From NCBI GenBank assembly GCA_038882955.1, contig JAVZNC010000001.1, forward strand, positions 192,001-256,000: a stretch of 64,000 nt of DNA, given 5' to 3'. Shown here piece after piece: positions 4,323 through 29,934 of the stretch. Within the stretch, counting starts at the first letter, position 1, and each line of letters begins with the position of its first letter. Both the position numbers and the translations under genes were made by a program. The DNA comes from Candidatus Bathyarchaeia archaeon (lineage in GTDB: Archaea; Thermoproteota; Bathyarchaeia; Bathyarchaeales; Bathycorpusculaceae). The notes beneath the pieces were generated by a model that made no database searches, had not been told where the DNA came from, and saw nothing but the letters and a program-made list of their open reading frames with translations.

Positions 4323-4559
4323 ATGTGTTTGGCAATCCCAGCGAAAGTCATAAGCGTAGAAGGCGAAAAGGCAAAAGTTGACTTTGGAGAAGGCGTTTTA
4401 AGAGAGATAAACATAACGCTTGTAAACGCCAAAGTTGGCGACTACGTTTTGGTCCACGCTGGATACGCAATCCAAGTCCTAGAAGAAAAGGAAGCCTTAG
4501 AAACAATACGCTTATGGAACGAAATTCTCCAAGCAGAACTAGAAGCTGAAAGGAAATGA
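4323..4559 (+). CDS. hypC: Hydrogenase assembly chaperone HypC
   Basis: MCLAIPA N-terminus, VGDYVLVHAG. Confidence 0.97.
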   Translation: MCLAIPAKVISVEGEKAKVDFGEGVLREINITLVNAKVGDYVLVHAGYAIQVLEEKEALETIRLWNEILQAELEAERK

Positions 4560-5644
4560 GCGAAAAATTGCATTTTAGGGACCCCAAAATTGCAAAAAAA
4601 GTTGCAGAAAAAATAAGGGAAACAGCGCCAAAAAACGAAACAGTCAAAATTTGCCACGTCTGCGGCACACACGAGTGGACGATAACGCACTTTGGCATAC
4701 GAAGTCTGTTACCACAAAACGTCGAAGTCATCGCTGGTCCAGGATGCCCAGTATGCATAGTCCCAGCATCCGAAATTGATGAGGCAGTGCAGCTAGCCCT
4801 AAAAGGCATAACAATAACGTGTTTTGGCGACGTTTTGCGTGTTCCAGGCTCGAAAACTTCGCTTTTGGGCGCTAAGGCTGAAGGCGCAGATGTCCGTATT
4901 GTCTACAGCGTTAGCGACGCTGTTAAAATGGCTGAAATGGAGCCGAACAAGGATTTTGTATTTTCCGCTGTGGGATTTGAAACAACAGCTCCATCAACAG
5001 CCGTTGAAATTCTAAAAACGCCACCAAAAAATTTGGCGTTCTTAGTTTCTCACCGTGTGATTCCACCTGCAATGGAGCTTTTAGCTGGAATGGAAGACCT
5101 AAACCTAGACGGCTTCATAGCGCCTGGACACGTAAGCACGATTATTGGGCTTAAAGCCTACGAGATTTTTCCGATAAAGTACGGCATGCCAACAGTTGTG
5201 GCTGGATTCGAGCCATTAGACGTGTTGTTTGGCGTTTACATGATTTTGAAACAGCTAAAAAATGGAAAACCGCGTTTGGAAAACGAGTATGTTCGCGCTG
5301 TAACTTGGGACGGCAACGTGAAAGCTCAAGAAGTGATACACAAAACCTTTGATGTTAATGATGGAAGATGGCGCGGACTCGGCACAATAGCCTCTTCAAA
5401 ATTTACGTTAAAAGAAGAATATGCACAATTTGATGCACACTTCAAATATGACGTGAAAGTCGAGCATGGCGTTGACATCCAACATGGCTGTAAATGCCAC
5501 TTAGTCATAATTGGCAAGATAAAACCGACAGAATGCCCATTATTTATGAAGATATGTACGCCACAAAAGCCGGTGGGCGCATGCATGGTAAGCGTAGAAG
5601 GAACATGCCGAATATGGGCTAAAGCAAAAATCCAAAACGGCTAA
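4556..5644 (+). CDS. hypD: Hydrogenase maturation protein HypD
   Basis: CGTHE, GPGCPVC, GFETT, PGHVS, C-terminal FeS cysteines. Confidence 0.97.
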   Translation: MSEKLHFRDPKIAKKVAEKIRETAPKNETVKICHVCGTHEWTITHFGIRSLLPQNVEVIAGPGCPVCIVPASEIDEAVQLALKGITITCFGDVLRVPGSKTSLLGAKAEGADVRIVYSVSDAVKMAEMEPNKDFVFSAVGFETTAPSTAVEILKTPPKNLAFLVSHRVIPPAMELLAGMEDLNLDGFIAPGHVSTIIGLKAYEIFPIKYGMPTVVAGFEPLDVLFGVYMILKQLKNGKPRLENEYVRAVTWDGNVKAQEVIHKTFDVNDGRWRGLGTIASSKFTLKEEYAQFDAHFKYDVKVEHGVDIQHGCKCHLVIIGKIKPTECPLFMKICTPQKPVGACMVSVEGTCRIWAKAKIQNG

Positions 5645-5667: not shown

Positions 5668-6255
5668 CTAAGCGTATTTCTTACATTTGTAGCAGTACCA
5701 ACGCTGATACTGCGGAACATAAGTCAAAGGACCGCCACACGTCGGACAAACCTCAGCGCCAGGCGGCGGTGGAGGCGGCGGCGTGGCTAGAGTAAACTTG
5801 ATTTTGAGGAATGTTGGAAGCGGTATGACTTTTTCTTCCATGATTGCTGCGCAGTAAGCTCCAAGCGGGTAAAAGATTACTGCAAAAAGAAGCGATAAAG
5901 CCCACTGACCCATGCTAGTGCCGAGGTCTCCAGAGTAGATTGCTGTGCCAAATATTGACATAAACAGTGTAATGAACAAATGTATTATTATTGTCAGAAT
6001 GCCCACTGCTATGGCATCTGTCCTTTTGTCATCGGTTTTGTGCAAACGAAAGTTAAGATAACCCGCAACAAATCCGCCGGTGAGGTACCCAAATAATCCA
6101 GCAATAAATGTTTGTGCAGCAATACGTCCCCAGTCAACCCTAATCAAGCCGACATTGACGAAACCAGCGCCGCTGGCAATGGCTAGTCCGACGGCAAACC
6201 CTATGATTCCAGCGGCGATGTAGTCGTGTAAATAGCCTTCTTCTTTTATGCTCAT
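5668..6255 (-). CDS. 4-TM membrane protein with polyproline linker and C-terminal Zn ribbon
   Basis: Four hydrophobic segments, PPPPPPP, CPTC...RWYCYKC. Confidence 0.8.
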   Translation of the reverse strand: MSIKEEGYLHDYIAAGIIGFAVGLAIASGAGFVNVGLIRVDWGRIAAQTFIAGLFGYLTGGFVAGYLNFRLHKTDDKRTDAIAVGILTIIIHLFITLFMSIFGTAIYSGDLGTSMGQWALSLLFAVIFYPLGAYCAAIMEEKVIPLPTFLKIKFTLATPPPPPPPGAEVCPTCGGPLTYVPQYQRWYCYKCKKYA

Positions 6256-6767: not shown

Positions 6768-7835
6768 CTAGCATATCCTCGGAACAGGGTCGCCGACGGG
6801 TCTAGGAATAATTCTTTTTCCGCCGACAACCGTCTGCATAGCCACCCCATCAAAGTCCGCTGTTGCTTCGCCTATGATTTCCGCGTCCTTCCCCTCTTCA
6901 GTTGCCCTCAGAAAATCTAAAACCTCATTTGCCTTCTCCTTCACCACGCCTAGGATTATTTTTCCTTCGTTTCCAATCTCGAGTGGGTCTAAACCCAACA
7001 TTTCACATGCTGCTTTAACATCGCCCCTTACTGGAATACGCTCTTCATAAGCAAGTATGCCAACATGGGATTTTTCGCTAAACTCGTTTAGGGCGTCCGC
7101 CAAGCCGCCCCTTGTAGGGTCTTTCATTGCTACTATGCCGCCAACTCCGCCTAGCAAACGTTGGATTAGTCGATTTAATGGCTTAACATCAGACTTTATG
7201 CCGCTTCCAAAGTTTAATCCCTCTTGCGCTGACAAAACAGCCAAACCATGGTCGCCTATCGTTCCAGAAAGGATTACTTTATCTCCAACAGCAAGGTTTG
7301 AATCCAAAATCCAGCGTGCGTTAAAGCCCTTTCTAAAGCGCTTGACAACTTCAATATTGTGGTCCAAAGCTGCGGTTCTCTTGCCAATTCCAGAAACATT
7401 TATTATACATCCGCCGAGACTCCCTTTCTCTACAACCTTCGTGTCTCCCGTAACTATGCTTACGCTAGCCTCCAAGCAAGTCTGCTTCATACTAGCCAAA
7501 ATTCTTTCGAAATCAGACAAGACCAAACCTTCCTCCAAAACAAAACCACAAGCCAAAGCATAAGGTTCGGCGCCCAGAACAGCGATATCATTAACTGTTC
7601 CAGAAACAGCTAAACGCCCAATATCGCCGCCTGGAAAGAAAATTGGCTTAACAGCGTGGGAATCGCTTTTCAAAACAATGTCGCCTACAACCGCAGCGTC
7701 ATCCAAAGCCTCGAGAGACACCTCAAAATTTGATGCGCCACCAAAATATTTTACAACAAAGTTCTTAACCAAATCGTGCATCACTGTTCCGCCAGCGCCA
7801 TGCAACATGGTAATACGCTCATCTTTAATTGTCAC
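6768..7835 (-). CDS. hypE: Hydrogenase maturation protein HypE
   Basis: HGAGG, GDIGRLAVSGTVNDIA, DPTRGG, C-terminal PRIC. Confidence 0.97.
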   Translation of the reverse strand: MTIKDERITMLHGAGGTVMHDLVKNFVVKYFGGASNFEVSLEALDDAAVVGDIVLKSDSHAVKPIFFPGGDIGRLAVSGTVNDIAVLGAEPYALACGFVLEEGLVLSDFERILASMKQTCLEASVSIVTGDTKVVEKGSLGGCIINVSGIGKRTAALDHNIEVVKRFRKGFNARWILDSNLAVGDKVILSGTIGDHGLAVLSAQEGLNFGSGIKSDVKPLNRLIQRLLGGVGGIVAMKDPTRGGLADALNEFSEKSHVGILAYEERIPVRGDVKAACEMLGLDPLEIGNEGKIILGVVKEKANEVLDFLRATEEGKDAEIIGEATADFDGVAMQTVVGGKRIIPRPVGDPVPRIC

Positions 7836-25803: not shown

Positions 25804-26591
25804 GTACCAAAAAGCAAGTTTCAGTTGTAATTCGAACAAGGGATAAGGAAAGATTTCTAGAAAACCTTTTAGAAAGGCTGGCTATGCAGACGCTGTCACC
25901 ATCAGAAATAATAATTGTAAACAATTATTCTTCAGAAGAGGAAAGAAGGTTTCTCGAGAACCAAGTGTCAGAGTGTTTTTGGAACTTTTTCCGAGAAAGA
26001 AAGAATGCCCTTAAAATTATCGCCTTATCAGATGCAGAGTTTTCACATGCATATTCCACAAACCTAGGCGTACATGCCGCAGAAAACGAACTAGTCTGCA
26101 TAACAAACGCGCATTCTCTCCCAACGTCGTACCATTGGCTCCAAGATGGCGCAAGACACTTCATAAATCCAAGCGTCGCAGGAGTAAGCGGCTTCTTTTT
26201 GCCACACAGCGAAGGCAAGGTTTTTGGAAATTTGGATAAACTGTTGTACTATTTTTCGCAAAAATTTGTTTTGCATCAAGACTGGTGTTCCACGATTAAC
26301 TGCATAATTAGGAAATCATTATGGCAAGTTTACCCCTTCGACGAAAACCTACCGAAAATTATACCGCAAACTCGAAGGTATGGATTGGAGGATTATGATT
26401 GGAGTAAAGAAATGATTTTCAGAGGATACAAAATAATTGTTGACCCCTCATTCAGCGTTTTTCATTCCCATGGAAAAGGCGTTGATGAAATAATAAGAAA
26501 TGTTAGGGGCTACTTTGTTTATCGGCGGTTACAGCAAAAAATAAACCAGTTAAAAAGACCTAGAAAATCCTTCAGCAAGCTCCTAGCCTAA
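25800..26591 (+). CDS. GT2 glycosyltransferase
   Basis: VSVVIRTRD, EIIIVNNYS, FDE...ED. Confidence 0.85.
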   Translation: MSTKKQVSVVIRTRDKERFLENLLERLAMQTLSPSEIIIVNNYSSEEERRFLENQVSECFWNFFRERKNALKIIALSDAEFSHAYSTNLGVHAAENELVCITNAHSLPTSYHWLQDGARHFINPSVAGVSGFFLPHSEGKVFGNLDKLLYYFSQKFVLHQDWCSTINCIIRKSLWQVYPFDENLPKIIPQTRRYGLEDYDWSKEMIFRGYKIIVDPSFSVFHSHGKGVDEIIRNVRGYFVYRRLQQKINQLKRPRKSFSKLLA

Positions 26592-27596
26592 CTTCTCCAA
26601 TACTAGCCATAAATGGTCGCATTCTGGTCTAACCAGCTCTTTTTCGCTTCCGTCCCTGCATTTGATTAGGCGCTCACCCGTATTTGGCGAAAATTCGCCG
26701 ATAATATTTGCAGGTATTCTATTTTTCTTCAAATTCTGCAAAACAATATTAGCCGAATCTCGTTCAGCAGCAATTAAAATGCTTCCAGAGGCAATCAAGC
26801 AAAGCGGGTCAATATCAAAGAAACGGCAAATTTGAAGGGTTTCTTTGGCGACTGGAATTTTCTCTTCATAAATTTTAAAGCCAAGTTTTGAAGCATCCGC
26901 CATTTCATGTATGCCGCCGGCTACGCCGCCTTCTGTGGGGTCATGCATGGCGTGAACTGCACTTGTTTTGAAGGCAGTTAGTGCATCTTTGACAACGCTG
27001 ATTTTTTCAAAGAAATTCTTGGCGTTAGCTAACGTTTCTTCGTCAACAGCCCTTTTTAATTCTTTTTCCATGTCTGAAGCGAGGATTGCAGTTCCTTCAA
27101 TTCCAGCGCTTTTCGTCAAAATTATTTTATCTCCAGCCTTAGCGTTTCCAGCAGTCACATAATTTCCTTTTTCCGTAACCCCCATCGCACAGCCGACAAC
27201 TATTGGATGAGTCAGCTCAGGTGTTACTTCGCAGTGTCCGCCAGCAATCGCTACCCCCAAATTTTTCGCCGCAGCATCCATTTGCGTGCATATAGTCTCA
27301 AGCATTTTTCTATCAGCCCTTTCTGGAAGTAGTATGCAAGAGAAAAAGAATGCTGGTTCAACGCCAAAAGTAGCAATATCATTCGCGTTAATGTTTAAAG
27401 CCAACCAGCCTATGCGCTCTAAAGCTCCAGTAATAGGGTCCATAGAAACAATCAAGGATTTATTGCCAACATCTATAACCGTGCCATCAAATCCTATTGA
27501 AGGCCCTAAAACGACTTCTTCACGTTCAAAACCTAGGTTTTTAAAAACAACATCTTGGAGAAATTCTATAGGAATTTTCCCAAGCGGCAACTTCAT
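26583..27596 (-). CDS. PurM/ThiL/HypE (AIR synthase) superfamily protein, function unknown
   Basis: DPIT, NANDIA, GGHCE, MHDPTEGG; lacks the HypE C-terminal Cys. Confidence 0.85.
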   Translation of the reverse strand: MKLPLGKIPIEFLQDVVFKNLGFEREEVVLGPSIGFDGTVIDVGNKSLIVSMDPITGALERIGWLALNINANDIATFGVEPAFFFSCILLPERADRKMLETICTQMDAAAKNLGVAIAGGHCEVTPELTHPIVVGCAMGVTEKGNYVTAGNAKAGDKIILTKSAGIEGTAILASDMEKELKRAVDEETLANAKNFFEKISVVKDALTAFKTSAVHAMHDPTEGGVAGGIHEMADASKLGFKIYEEKIPVAKETLQICRFFDIDPLCLIASGSILIAAERDSANIVLQNLKKNRIPANIIGEFSPNTGERLIKCRDGSEKELVRPECDHLWLVLEKLG

Positions 27597-27626
27597 TTTT
27601 GATCCTCTGAAATATAATTTCTTGTT

Positions 27627-28373
27627 TTAGCTTTTAAGCTGTGGGAGGCTGCGAAGAATAATTTTCAAAATTGGTATTGCGACAATTAATCCAATAAGCA
27701 TTTGCCCTATATTTATTGGAATTTCCACGATGGCTGCTGGCTTACTTAATACGAACTGCTCGTAAAGAAAATATCCGCAGACCATCTCTAAACCGCCAAT
27801 GATTATTGCAAAAATGGAACGCCCAAGTTCTGGTTCAATTCTAAAACCCATAAAGACTATTAGCAGAACTGAGGCACCGCCTAGAGAATACCAAAGCTCT
27901 GGAGGAACAAAAACGCTAAATGTAGGATTTTGAGGTTGAGGGAAACCAATGTACAAGTCTACTTTTCCAACGTAATACATGGAGCCAGCCATTGCAAGTA
28001 AAACACCTACAACAATTCCTAGTATCGACGTAAAAATTTTCCATTTAAACCTCGAAGTCCGCACAAGAAATCTCTTATTTAAGAAACCCACTATTGCTCC
28101 CTCAAAACTTTTTATTATAAAAGTTCCTGGAGCAAATTGTGGTGCTACCAACATATCTGCTATGGAGGCACCAACTCCACCGGCGAAGGCGCCTACATAA
28201 GGTCCAAAAAGCAATGCAGCTACATAAATCACTGTTTCACCTATGTTAAAGTACCCTGTTGTTGCTGGAACGTTTACTATGAAGGCTATCGTTGCAATGC
28301 ATACTAATGCAGCAAAAACTGCGGATATAGTAAACTGAAAGGTTGTTTTCGCAGAGTTAACCTTCGGTCTCAT
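27627..28373 (-). CDS. ECF transporter S component (vitamin/precursor uptake)
   Basis: FAALVCIAT...GYFNIGETVIYVAALLFGP..GAFAGGVGASIAD...APGTFIIK. Confidence 0.88.
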   Translation of the reverse strand: MRPKVNSAKTTFQFTISAVFAALVCIATIAFIVNVPATTGYFNIGETVIYVAALLFGPYVGAFAGGVGASIADMLVAPQFAPGTFIIKSFEGAIVGFLNKRFLVRTSRFKWKIFTSILGIVVGVLLAMAGSMYYVGKVDLYIGFPQPQNPTFSVFVPPELWYSLGGASVLLIVFMGFRIEPELGRSIFAIIIGGLEMVCGYFLYEQFVLSKPAAIVEIPINIGQMLIGLIVAIPILKIILRSLPQLKS

Positions 28374-28384
28374 TGCGAAACCTG

Positions 28385-28408
28385 ATAGTGTAGTTACAAC
28401 TATACTAT
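28385..28408. promoter_or_regulatory. 24-bp inverted repeat, candidate operator of the ECF S gene
   Basis: ATAGTGTAGTT-AC-AACTATACTAT, arms match 10/11, 11 bp from the start codon. Confidence 0.6.
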
Positions 28409-28422
28409 ATTAGTTTTTCTAC

Positions 28423-29814
28423 TTACAAAAGAAGCTTTAAATCGTCAATTGCTTGTAAAACCTTTTTGCCGCGTTCTGTTATCTTGAAAAATTTTCTTCT
28501 ATCTTTTTTGTAACTTGCTATTAATCCTTTTCCATAAAGTTCTGTGAGGTGCTGGTATATTGCGCCTCTGGTCATTGTTTTTCCAAGTTTTTCCCACAAA
28601 TCGTAGCCGTAAGCATCCCTTTCTTTGAGAATCCTTAAGATTTTCTCTTTAGTGCTTATTTCTAAGCCTAAAACTGCCGTTTTCTGCTTTTTCGTTAACG
28701 CTTGCAGTATATCTGTGGCTTTAAGCCCGCTTCCAGTTATTGGACATACAACGCTTTCGTTTTTGGTGATGTGTCCTTCCTTAACAAGCTTTTTCAAAGC
28801 GGCAATTTCAGCTGAACTTGATGGTTCTGCAAATATGCCTTCATGTTTGGCTATGGTGAGTTCTGCCGTGAAAATTTCGCTGTCAGAAACTGTTAGGGCT
28901 AAGCCTCCTGACTCTTTTATCGCTTTTATTGCAAGTTCGCTTTGTATTGGCTCCTTAACAAGTAGGGCAAGGGCCTTTGTTGAAGGCTTTGCTGATATAC
29001 GCCTTTTCTTAAGTAGCATTTTAATTATTGCTGAGCTTCCCTCGGGTTGGACGCCGACCATTTTTGGAAGCTTTTTCGCTAAGCCTAACCGTTCAAGTGC
29101 TTTGAAACCTTTCCAAAGTGAATATATTGTTCCGCCGCTGCCCATAGAAACAATCATCCAGTCTGGAACTCCAAACTGTTCAAAAATTTCGTATGAAATT
29201 GTTTTCTGCGCCTCAATTACAAGCGGATTCAACTCCGCAGTTGCCTGATACCAGTTTAGTTCTTTTGCTAATGCCTCGGCTCTACGTATTGCGTCGTCAA
29301 TGAACTCTCCAAATTCTTCAATAGCAGCATCATAAACTAGCATTTGCGCCAGTTTACCAACATCAACAAGCTTAGGTACTATAACGTGGCAGTTCAGTCC
29401 CGCCTTTGCACAATAAGCAGCTATAGAGGCGCCGAGGTTTCCCATGCTTGCGCATACAAGCGTGTCATGTTTAAGGTCTAAAGCATTTGATGTTAGTAGG
29501 GCGGCAGCGCGGTCTCTATACGAGTTTGTCGGGTGTCTAGTTTCATCTTTTAGGTAAAGCTCTTTCAAACCTAAAAGTTTGGCAAGCCTATCAGCCCTAT
29601 GTAGGGGAGTTCCGCCCTCGCCCAAAGTTATCATGTGTCTAACTGGCGGAAGAAGATGCCTATACCTCCAAAAGCCAGCATAACCAGAAACGCCTAGTTT
29701 GCATGCAGATGAAATAGGCACATTATAGTCTAGTAAGCCTCCACATTTTTCGCACAAGCCACGTGGAGGAAACAATGGAAACTTGGCGCCGCATTTAAGG
29801 CACTCTAAAGCCAT
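28423..29814 (-). CDS. Threonine synthase-like domain (Schiff-base Lys replaced by Arg) fused to a PadR-type wHTH
   Basis: TLGEGGTPL, HPTNSYRDR, SMGSGG, EPSS, TGSGLK; C-terminal AYGYDL...GAIYQHL...RKFFKITERG. Confidence 0.85.
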   Translation of the reverse strand: MALECLKCGAKFPLFPPRGLCEKCGGLLDYNVPISSACKLGVSGYAGFWRYRHLLPPVRHMITLGEGGTPLHRADRLAKLLGLKELYLKDETRHPTNSYRDRAAALLTSNALDLKHDTLVCASMGNLGASIAAYCAKAGLNCHVIVPKLVDVGKLAQMLVYDAAIEEFGEFIDDAIRRAEALAKELNWYQATAELNPLVIEAQKTISYEIFEQFGVPDWMIVSMGSGGTIYSLWKGFKALERLGLAKKLPKMVGVQPEGSSAIIKMLLKKRRISAKPSTKALALLVKEPIQSELAIKAIKESGGLALTVSDSEIFTAELTIAKHEGIFAEPSSSAEIAALKKLVKEGHITKNESVVCPITGSGLKATDILQALTKKQKTAVLGLEISTKEKILRILKERDAYGYDLWEKLGKTMTRGAIYQHLTELYGKGLIASYKKDRRKFFKITERGKKVLQAIDDLKLLL

Positions 29815-29934
29815 GATTCCAATCCACAAATTACACTATAATTATTTGCACCTTAAAGTTCTTTTAAGCATTTACAAGCACTAATAAAATGGGAAAACTC
29901 TAAATGTGAGTATTATGCTGATAGATAGCAAGCC

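Follow-up and report, generated by a model that had tools for sequence, protein, structure and literature searches.

Regulators that join an enzyme fold to a DNA-binding domain are known from the bacterial MocR/PdxR group and from enzyme-derived vitamin regulators of archaea. MocR proteins consist of an N-terminal GntR winged helix-turn-helix (wHTH) followed by a fold-type I aminotransferase-like domain, and they typically keep their Lys. In the archaeal regulators ThiR and RbkR, a vitamin-pathway enzyme domain is combined with a DNA-binding domain, and these proteins control biosynthesis or uptake genes of that vitamin. The sections of PMC5320631 used here give pdxST, pdxK and pdxU as the content of bacterial PdxR (MocR-type) regulons and state that Archaea have no MocR regulators. 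Transporters for vitamin B6 are largely unidentified and an uncharacterised B6 kinase may exist; these points, and the placing of PdxU and PdxU2/HmpT among PF07155 proteins, come from excerpts of PMC9997740. The present analysis concerns a 64,000-nucleotide stretch of a Bathyarchaeia genome (the window). Three consecutive minus-strand open reading frames (ORFs) within it encode a fusion of a threonine synthase-like (ThrC) domain with a PadR-type wHTH, the S-component of an energy-coupling factor (ECF) transporter, and an enzyme of the PurM superfamily. The fusion protein is predicted to be a ligand-sensing transcription regulator of the transporter gene. Coordinates are positions within the window; the host genome (1.54 Mb) is 95.6% complete.

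The fusion protein resembles MocR/PdxR in joining the fold of a pyridoxal 5'-phosphate (PLP) enzyme to a wHTH, and like them it would probably work as a dimer on repeated DNA boxes. The two are not homologous: the sensor is of fold-type II (ThrC), the PadR HTH is C-terminal, and nearly all members have lost the Schiff-base Lys that MocR regulators typically retain. Judged by gene context and shared operators, there is a further parallel with PdxR regulons as far as the cited sections describe them, namely pdxST, a PdxU-type transporter and a salvage enzyme; this is a functional likeness and not membership. ThiR and RbkR differ in enzyme fold, HTH and vitamin. The design principle is a known one, whereas its parts here are different and, as far as found, apparently undescribed. 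No ThrC–HTH regulator, archaeal B6 regulation or PurM-fold pyridoxal kinase is described in the full-text literature searched, a search that excluded supplements; those of PMC9997740 and PMC5320631 might list archaeal candidates.

The fusion protein has 463 residues from the ATG at 29814, or 468 from an upstream TTG. It matches PALP (PF00291) at 2.1e-75 and PadR (PF03551) at 5.2e-12 (46 bits, cut-off 27), the latter over profile positions 1–74 of 75. A preliminary description of this DNA, made from its letters, had already named a C-terminal PadR-type wHTH, intact SMGSGG and TGSGLK motifs, and the motif HPTNSYRDR with an AGA codon at 29517–29515. All of these are confirmed; the minus strand reads CAC CCG ACA AAC TCG TAT AGA GAC CGC, and the three linked same-strand genes that it placed here are borne out by ORFs and Pfam matches. 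The Arg of HPTNSYRDR aligns opposite the Lys of PTGSFKDR in the solved threonine synthases 2zsj (1.3e-63) and 6cgq. In fold-type II PLP enzymes, the Lys that forms the Schiff base lies towards the N-terminus and the loop that binds the phosphate towards the C-terminus, and a Ser, Thr or Cys is placed at the pyridine nitrogen (passages of PMC6411801). Arg at the Lys position and the same two-domain architecture occur in all 120 of the 120 closest homologues (69–100% identity), so that the AGA codon is neither a sequencing error nor a one-off. The Lys-to-Arg change is accordingly conserved among close relatives, and other non-Lys residues replace it in the wider fused family.

This wider family was sampled with 150 representatives of 50%-identity clusters plus the query (151 rows). 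In 82 rows the C-terminus is extended, where the HTH would lie, by 50 residues or more; 69 are unextended. The residue at the Lys position among the extended rows is Leu (19), Arg (17), Ile (16), Val (6), Thr (5), Met (4), Phe (3) or one of several single others, and only two true fusions keep Lys. Three more Lys-bearing extended rows (P0245, P0255, P0262) are about 620 residues long with a different C-terminal extension of about 210 residues, and by their sequence represent another ThrC fusion architecture. Lys is kept in 66 of the 69 unextended rows, and two of the other three are fragments. Conservation was compared between 77 full-length fused proteins and 64 unfused ThrCs, the latter chosen as Lys-keeping. 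Among positions conserved to at least 85% in the unfused set, the Lys alone is essentially lost from the fused proteins (kept 0.03, 2/77), and a few others are partly relaxed (kept 0.38–0.66). The D-R after the Lys, the G-N motif including its Asn, the Gly loop, T-G-x-G-L-K and the four N-terminal Cys are all kept. These motifs fit an intact cofactor pocket, in which residue-by-residue roles are inferred; the four Cys may form a zinc-ribbon-like motif. In sum of likeness, the fusion protein shares with ThrC (TIGR00260, NF004170/PRK05638) the fold, the N-terminal Cys motif and nearly all conserved residues, and differs in its missing catalytic Lys, its added PadR domain and its position beside a transporter gene.

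An active, if unusual, threonine synthase with the HTH as an accessory or autoregulatory appendage would accord with the public annotation. Records name homologues of the fusion protein 'threonine synthase', and its score against TIGR00260 (201 bits) exceeds the cut-off of 167.1. NF004170 (PRK05638), an NCBIfam 'equivalog' named threonine synthase, spans the whole fused architecture; the match of the fusion protein covers its full length at 399.7 bits, below the cut-off of 421, which was reached by 0 of 14 well-known control genomes. NF006050 gives 241.6 bits, below a cut-off of 303. Against catalysis stand the absent Schiff-base Lys, replaced by L, I, V, M, T or F in sister clades, and the presence elsewhere in the genome of a bona fide ThrC (NPTGSFKDRG, 330.8 bits) and a further Lys-bearing paralogue. 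Because Lys loss is a family trait and the genome encodes a true ThrC, the fusion protein is very unlikely to be a threonine synthase, and the idea of an active enzyme deserves practically no credence. The loss of a single residue from an otherwise retained ThrC set supports the earlier view of the protein as a pseudo-enzyme. The third ThrC-like protein of the genome (392 aa; G000:C1:348101-349042, L003:1480-2658, minus strand) keeps its Lys, adjoins a thermosome-like gene and scores 128 bits against TIGR00260, below the cut-off.

A quick, unrooted FastTree tree of the ThrC domain, computed with the Lys column masked, yields three groups. In one of them, 59 unfused ThrCs share one side of a branch. 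The window protein and both Lys-keeping fusions fall into the second, a fused clade of 25 rows rich in Arg. The third is a fused clade of 53 rows with hydrophobic residues at the Lys position (the L/I/M clade). Arg-type members also occur in metagenome-assembled genomes of Thermococci (L037, L038). No order of events is drawn from this tree, as it is unrooted and quick. In four Bathyarchaeia loci a ThrC paralogue of about 420 residues lies divergently upstream of the fused regulator gene (minus strand; L014:155-1432, L017:3876-5135, L018:4058-5314, L019:144-1406), and could be a trace of the duplication that produced the regulator. A homodimer model of the regulator with PLP reaches an ipSAE of 0.83 (best control 0.00; pLDDT 86). 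Among proteins solved as pairs 20 of 30 reached this mark, and among those solved as single chains 1 of 23 did. The three runs share at least 67% of their contacts, and the confident interface falls within the ThrC domain. Since threonine synthase dimers are solved, this pass may reflect memory; the model shows likeness and not binding, and a dimer would fit a palindromic operator.

The regulator gene is linked to the S-component gene in several archaeal lineages. A scan of 80 loci, with one genome per species, covered 48 fused and 32 unfused ThrC genes. In 34 of the 48 fused loci the gene has an S-component homologue no more than 300 bp away, and in one more at a distance of 2.9 kb; none of the 32 unfused loci has one. 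Five of the 13 fused loci that have no S-component homologue are cut by a contig end beside the gene. In 15 linked loci the PurM-like gene follows the S-component. Linked loci span Bathyarchaeia, Asgard lineages (Promethearchaeia, Hermod- and Thorarchaeota), Nitrososphaeria and Desulfurococcales; both the HTH fusion and its S-component neighbour, first described from the window, are conserved well beyond it. Regulator and S-component genes are variously co-directional, convergent or divergent, which argues that the linkage is functional rather than inherited. Fused genes with no adjacent target have housekeeping neighbours (GatDE, FttA with the proteasome, PEPCK, and an Mrp/NUBPL-like P-loop ATPase, PF10609, listed as ParA), which give no functional lead. 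In two such Bathyarchaeia loci (L028:4073-7395, L031:4085-7389) an Arg-type fused gene overlaps the end of gatD-gatE, which encode the archaeal Glu-tRNA amidotransferase, and looks co-transcribed with it; the S-component gene lies elsewhere in both genomes, with its own upstream inverted repeat.

A predicted operator connects the two genes. The 49-bp spacer between the regulator stop and the S-component ATG holds the near-palindrome TAGTATAGTTGTAACTACACTA (28407–28386, minus strand), 13–34 nt upstream of the ATG and right after an A/T-rich stretch. Orthologous loci carry the palindrome TAGTATAGTTaTAACTATACTA at the same place, sometimes in tandem. A position matrix was built from 17 sites of close-clade loci. 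The window palindrome, at 33.6 bits, is the sole site above 12 bits in the whole genome, and the matrix finds a palindrome upstream of the S-component in 20 of the 20 close-clade loci that hold both genes, four of which lie outside the matrix (L006, 36.1 bits; L014, 24.6; L111, 27.0; L112, 28.6). In locus L017 the S-component gene lies 2.9 kb away on the other strand, and the site (32.7 bits) stands beside it and not beside the regulator gene. The matrix scan of the fetched loci detected no palindrome upstream of the regulator gene, or upstream of the thrC paralogues in four loci. Seven S-component/PurM-like loci were also taken from same-family genomes in which the C-terminal query of the regulator had no match; none of the seven has a palindrome above 14 bits. 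From the counts of 20/20 against 0/7, and from the position in L017, it follows that regulator and palindrome co-occur and that the palindrome belongs to the S-component promoter.

Other lineages have operators of their own. Asgard loci carry the palindrome ATATAAGTTTAAACTTATAT before the S-component, often doubled, and the L/I/M clade has the motif TATATAGGCT..AGCTTATATA at the same position. Palindromes also precede S-component genes in Thermococci, in Methanobacteriota and in two Bathyarchaeia genomes with a target-less regulator, and occur where the regulator gene lies elsewhere (L120–L122, L130–L134). Two overlapping or tandem copies are seen in L007, L008, L011 and L112 and in the Asgard loci L029–L035, an arrangement that suggests cooperative binding of two dimers in some lineages. 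The position of the predicted operator, between a candidate TATA and the gene start, suggests repression. Control of the downstream genes by the fusion protein, as the preliminary description proposed, gains support from a palindrome that is unique in the genome, co-occurs with the regulator and tracks the S-component. It is highly probable that the fusion protein acts locally, as a regulator of the S-component promoter.

Gene context points to vitamin B6. In three genomes of one Bathyarchaeia family (G082, G022, G085) a fused gene with Leu or Met at the Lys position is divergent from pdxS-pdxT, and the intergenic motif is the one found before the S-component genes of the same clade. The same S-component motif is present in G002, G034 and G010, where the regulator gene lies elsewhere. 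A Nitrososphaerales locus (L078) also has the fused regulator divergent from pdxS-pdxT, with a similar motif just upstream of the regulator. A pattern scan of five L/I/M-clade genomes returned one perfect match in each, at pdxS or the S-component; because these sites were also the source of the pattern, the scan is informative only in that no further perfect match turned up. In G007 the PurM-like gene, pdxS and pdxT run head to tail on one strand. Family searches found no PdxS, PdxT or PdxJ in the window's genome and no PdxK/Y; TIGR00687, the PdxK/PdxY model, touches only ThiDN, a ThiD–ThiN fusion, at 55 bits. Among 151 Bathyarchaeia genomes, each at least 80% complete, PdxS occurs in 22 and TIGR00687 finds a PdxK/PdxY in none. 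The earlier proposal of a sensor for a B6 vitamer is favoured by the pdxST neighbours with their shared operator type, by the HmpT/PdxU2 relative downstream and by the finding of no de novo B6 genes in the genome. We regard a B6 function of the regulator, S-component and PurM-like unit as probable. The features of the locus are collected in table 1.

Table 1. Features of the regulator, transporter and enzyme locus (window positions).
Feature	Position	Strand	Basis
ThrC-fold/PadR-wHTH fusion protein, predicted ligand-sensing transcription regulator	28423..29814	-	ORF; PALP and PadR; full-length NF004170 match
Fold-type II PLP-enzyme (ThrC-like) sensor domain	28732..29631	-	PF00291, residues 67-366 of the 468-aa reading
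AGA codon, Arg at the Schiff-base Lys position	29515..29517	-	sequence and alignment to 2zsj and 6cgq
N-terminal four-Cys motif, common to unfused ThrC relatives	29743..29802	-	C5, C8, C21 and C24 conserved in both groups
C-terminal PadR-type winged helix-turn-helix	28453..28641	-	PF03551, residues 397-459 of the 468-aa reading
22-bp near-palindrome, predicted operator (minus strand TAGTATAGTTGTAACTACACTA)	28386..28407		conservation in orthologous loci and genome scan
A/T-rich stretch just upstream of the palindrome, candidate B recognition element (BRE)/TATA of the S-component promoter	28408..28420	-	inference from sequence
ECF S-component, 248 aa, PdxU/PdxU2(HmpT) family, predicted B6-vitamer transporter	27627..28373	-	PF07155; PDB match 4hzu_S
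ATP-utilising enzyme of the PurM superfamily, 337 aa, a distinct paralogue predicted to phosphorylate a B6 vitamer or to serve B6 salvage in another way	26583..27596	-	AIRS and AIRS_C

The S-component matches PF07155 at 1.9e-29 (103.3 bits, cut-off 26.7). Its family profile matches a single PDB chain at E-values up to 10, 4hzu_S (1.3e-23, over both halves), and the single sequence matches the same chain at 1.5e-9. The question raised earlier, whether the protein is PdxU/HmpT-like, is answered by this membership of PF07155 and by HmpT/PdxU2 as the sole solved match. 4HZU is the Lactobacillus brevis ECF transporter HmpT, whose substrate is given as pyridoxamine from mass spectrometry and simulations and whose conserved pocket residues are E41, H84, Q87, Y120, N140 and Q143 (parts of PMC4860826). 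Four of these six are kept in the S-component family, as E/D, Y201, N221 and Q224, by our own mapping through the alignment onto the residues listed there. HmpT/PdxU2 and PdxU (PF07155, COG4720) are thus of the same Pfam family and share four of six pocket residues with the S-component, which differs from HmpT/PdxU2 in its low sequence similarity, in the two other pocket positions and, in many members including the window's, in an insertion of about 70 residues. The family has a short form of about 180 residues and a long form, the window's, of about 248; the insertion of the long form brings extra hydrophobic stretches. An EcfT gene (PF02361, 120 bits) adjoins two ABC ATPase genes on contig C2, so the genome holds an ECF energising module. 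Public names of the S-component homologues are uninformative ('uncharacterized membrane protein'). The S-component is predicted to transport a B6 vitamer.

The third gene encodes a protein with AIRS (PF00586, 59 bits) and AIRS_C (PF02769, 94.6 bits) domains. Described families were tried and rejected. (i) HypE: TIGR02124 gives 130.7 bits (cut-off 251.6), and the protein ends in LEKLG and lacks the PRIC Cys. (ii) ThiL: TIGR01379 gives 90.8 bits (cut-off 184.15), and the true ThiL lies elsewhere (contig C11, 262.7 bits). (iii) SelD: TIGR00476 gives 79.1 bits (cut-off 125). (iv) PurM and PurL: all NCBIfam equivalogs are below cut-off, and the genome's PurL is elsewhere. (v) PdxK/PdxY: the fold differs from that of the ribokinase-fold kinases, and a kinase role is by analogy only. 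The protein shares with HypE, ThiL and SelD the two-domain AIRS/AIRS_C fold and conserved Asp-containing motifs, and differs in scoring below every family cut-off and in having neither the PRIC Cys nor the internal insertion of HypE. The true HypE of the genome lies in the same window (6768–7835, minus strand; 365.2 bits), ends in PRIC and has the insertion; in the alignment the PurM-like family lacks both and has invariant motifs of its own. HypD (475.6 bits) is at 4556–5644 on the plus strand. Between HypD and HypE, a 195-residue ORF (5668–6255, minus strand) has no Pfam family and a marginal match to the S-component profile (E 0.009). The genome also has one further PurM-fold paralogue. A search of the ESM Atlas brought up nothing more specific for the PurM-like protein than clusters labelled 'AIR synthase' and 'hydrogenase expression', and public names of homologues are no more informative ('AIR synthase family protein', 'hydrogenase maturation factor').

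The PurM-like gene is widespread, with a homologue in 138 of the 151 Bathyarchaeia genomes, and adjoins the S-component in all seven related regulator-less genomes, in varied orientations. The constant company of membrane proteins, the lack of PdxK/Y in all 151 genomes and one operon with pdxST make the enzyme the best candidate for a non-orthologous B6-vitamer kinase. We put this assignment forward tentatively, at somewhat below even chances. The novel salvage kinase suggested in the preliminary description is plausible, though tentative, as a role for the protein, which is distinct from ThiL, HypE, SelD, PurM and PurL and keeps company with the S-component or with pdxST. The closest relatives of the enzyme, the HypE proteins (130.7 bits; PDB 3vti, 9.7e-26), are dehydratases and not kinases, and HypE-like chemistry on another substrate may be considered. 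On that reading the regulator would still be local to the transporter, the enzyme would carry out some other ATP-dependent chemistry on an imported B6-related compound or a protein-bound group, and phosphorylation of B6 would fall to ThiDN or would be unneeded if PLP were imported directly. Its pairing with a different protein of four transmembrane segments and no known family in the pdxST-bearing family f20 fits this, and the invariant Lys that replaces HmpT His84 in our mapping might accommodate pyridoxal or a vitamer that bears a phosphate. The lack of PdxK/Y in genomes that nearly all have the PurM-like gene speaks against it, as do the fact that a transporter and a kinase are a minimal salvage set and the membership of phosphoryl-transferring ThiL and SelD in the PurM superfamily. 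This reading is rather unlikely. In family f20 the PurM-like gene is followed, where an S-component would be, by a conserved protein of 172–177 residues with about four hydrophobic segments and no Pfam match (L126:1923-2447(-), L127:1620-2138(-), L128:4361-4894(+)).

A thiamine function for the downstream pair would combine an importer of hydroxymethylpyrimidine or a thiamine derivative with a ThiL-like kinase, under a regulator that senses a thiamine-related compound. HmpT was indeed first predicted to carry hydroxymethylpyrimidine (same parts of PMC4860826), and ThiL is the second-best NCBIfam match of the PurM-like protein. That match is far below the ThiL cut-off, the genome has its own ThiL above the cut-off as well as ThiDN, pdxST stands beside family members and, in G007, in one operon with the PurM-like gene, and the sensor domain has a PLP fold. 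Thiamine salvage is therefore improbable.

The proposed mechanism starts from what the computation established, namely the domain architecture, the loss of the Lys, the linkage of regulator, operator and transporter, and the B6 gene context. Its remaining elements (ligand identity, direction of control, transporter substrate and enzyme reaction) are deduced. (i) The regulator would be made of a ThrC (fold-type II PLP) domain that has lost catalysis, with a PadR wHTH at its C-terminal end. (ii) As a dimer it would bind the 22-bp palindrome between the candidate TATA region and the S-component start. (iii) Binding would block transcription of a two-gene unit that encodes the PdxU2/HmpT-like S-component and the PurM-fold enzyme. 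(iv) The sensor domain would bind PLP, or some closely related phosphate or adduct of B6, and thereby register the cofactor pool; binding would be reversible because the PLP pocket is kept but an internal aldimine cannot form. (v) The operon would be repressed when B6 is replete, and uptake and salvage would be switched on when it is scarce. (vi) The imported vitamer would also be trapped by the B6-vitamer kinase that is otherwise missing, a part for which the PurM-fold enzyme is the best candidate. Since no PdxS, PdxT, PdxJ or PdxK/Y was found in it, the organism would depend on this unit. The reading we favour, with moderate confidence, is a repressor that responds to PLP and controls the uptake and salvage of B6; that PLP itself is the ligand has about an even chance.

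Several observations weigh against this reading. The HmpT substrate on which the transporter assignment leans rests on one mass-spectrometry and simulation study, as presented in the parts of it cited here. Mapped onto the pocket residues given there, HmpT His84 is an invariant Lys (K88) and Gln87 an invariant Glu (E91) in the S-component family, and because two pocket residues are replaced the vitamer may differ from that of HmpT. Pyridoxal kinase activity might come from ThiDN of the genome (PF08543), and PdxS-positive genomes have the PurM-like gene too. The idea that the regulator is confined to PdxS-less genomes had to be rejected: 6 of the 22 PdxS-positive genomes carry it, and its presence does not track PdxS absence. 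Adjacency to pdxST is seen in four loci only, three in one Bathyarchaeia family and one in Nitrososphaerales; as all four belong to the L/I/M clade and not to the Arg clade of the window, the two clades may have different ligands. That the ligand brings about repression is assumed from operator position. Finally, nearly all ThrC-conserved residues are kept, beyond those expected to hold PLP, and a thrC paralogue lies upstream of the regulator in four loci (L014, L017–L019). ThrC-wide retention would also fit O-phosphohomoserine, threonine or a PLP–amino acid adduct as the ligand. In that case the compound sensed would be an amino acid or its phosphorylated form (O-phosphohomoserine, threonine or their PLP aldimine), and the downstream unit would serve amino-acid-related metabolism. 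The thrC paralogues of those four loci have no operator-like site, nor has any other place in them, and the linked targets are pdxST and a PdxU2-like S-component. Amino-acid sensing is accordingly judged unlikely, and a PLP-responsive repressor is retained as the working model.

Contigs matching the window DNA come from hot-spring metagenomes. Among the differences listed between the window and contigs of four runs, none falls at 29515–29517; no weight is placed on this, and the case for the AGA codon is carried by the 120 homologues. In the run that is probably the source of this DNA, a second contig matches the regulator gene (28594–29913) at about 88% identity, with 153 differences in 1320 bases; a related strain co-occurs with the window organism in the same metagenome run.

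The locus offers a testable regulator, operator, transporter and enzyme where archaeal B6 regulation, transport and kinase activity have a gap. The fusion protein would be a clean case of a pseudo-enzyme turned sensor, with one residue lost and the rest of the active site kept. It also flags a systematic misannotation, in that fused proteins are publicly named 'threonine synthase' and NF004170 spans their architecture. The full proposal is that archaea independently invented a PLP sensor from a dead threonine synthase and a PadR HTH, as a counterpart of PdxR, and combined it with a PdxU2-like importer and a new non-orthologous class of B6-vitamer kinase; in its entirety this is somewhat unlikely. 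If true, archaea would have their own equivalent of bacterial PdxR in a widespread family that now bears the name threonine synthase, and two missing pieces of archaeal B6 metabolism, the importer and the kinase class, would be exposed. The PurM-fold kinase would then fill the absence of PdxK/Y in 151 Bathyarchaeia genomes and form an uptake-and-trapping module with the transporter. Because PdxS is found in only 22 of these genomes, the system is relevant to how communities of sediments and hot springs depend on vitamins.

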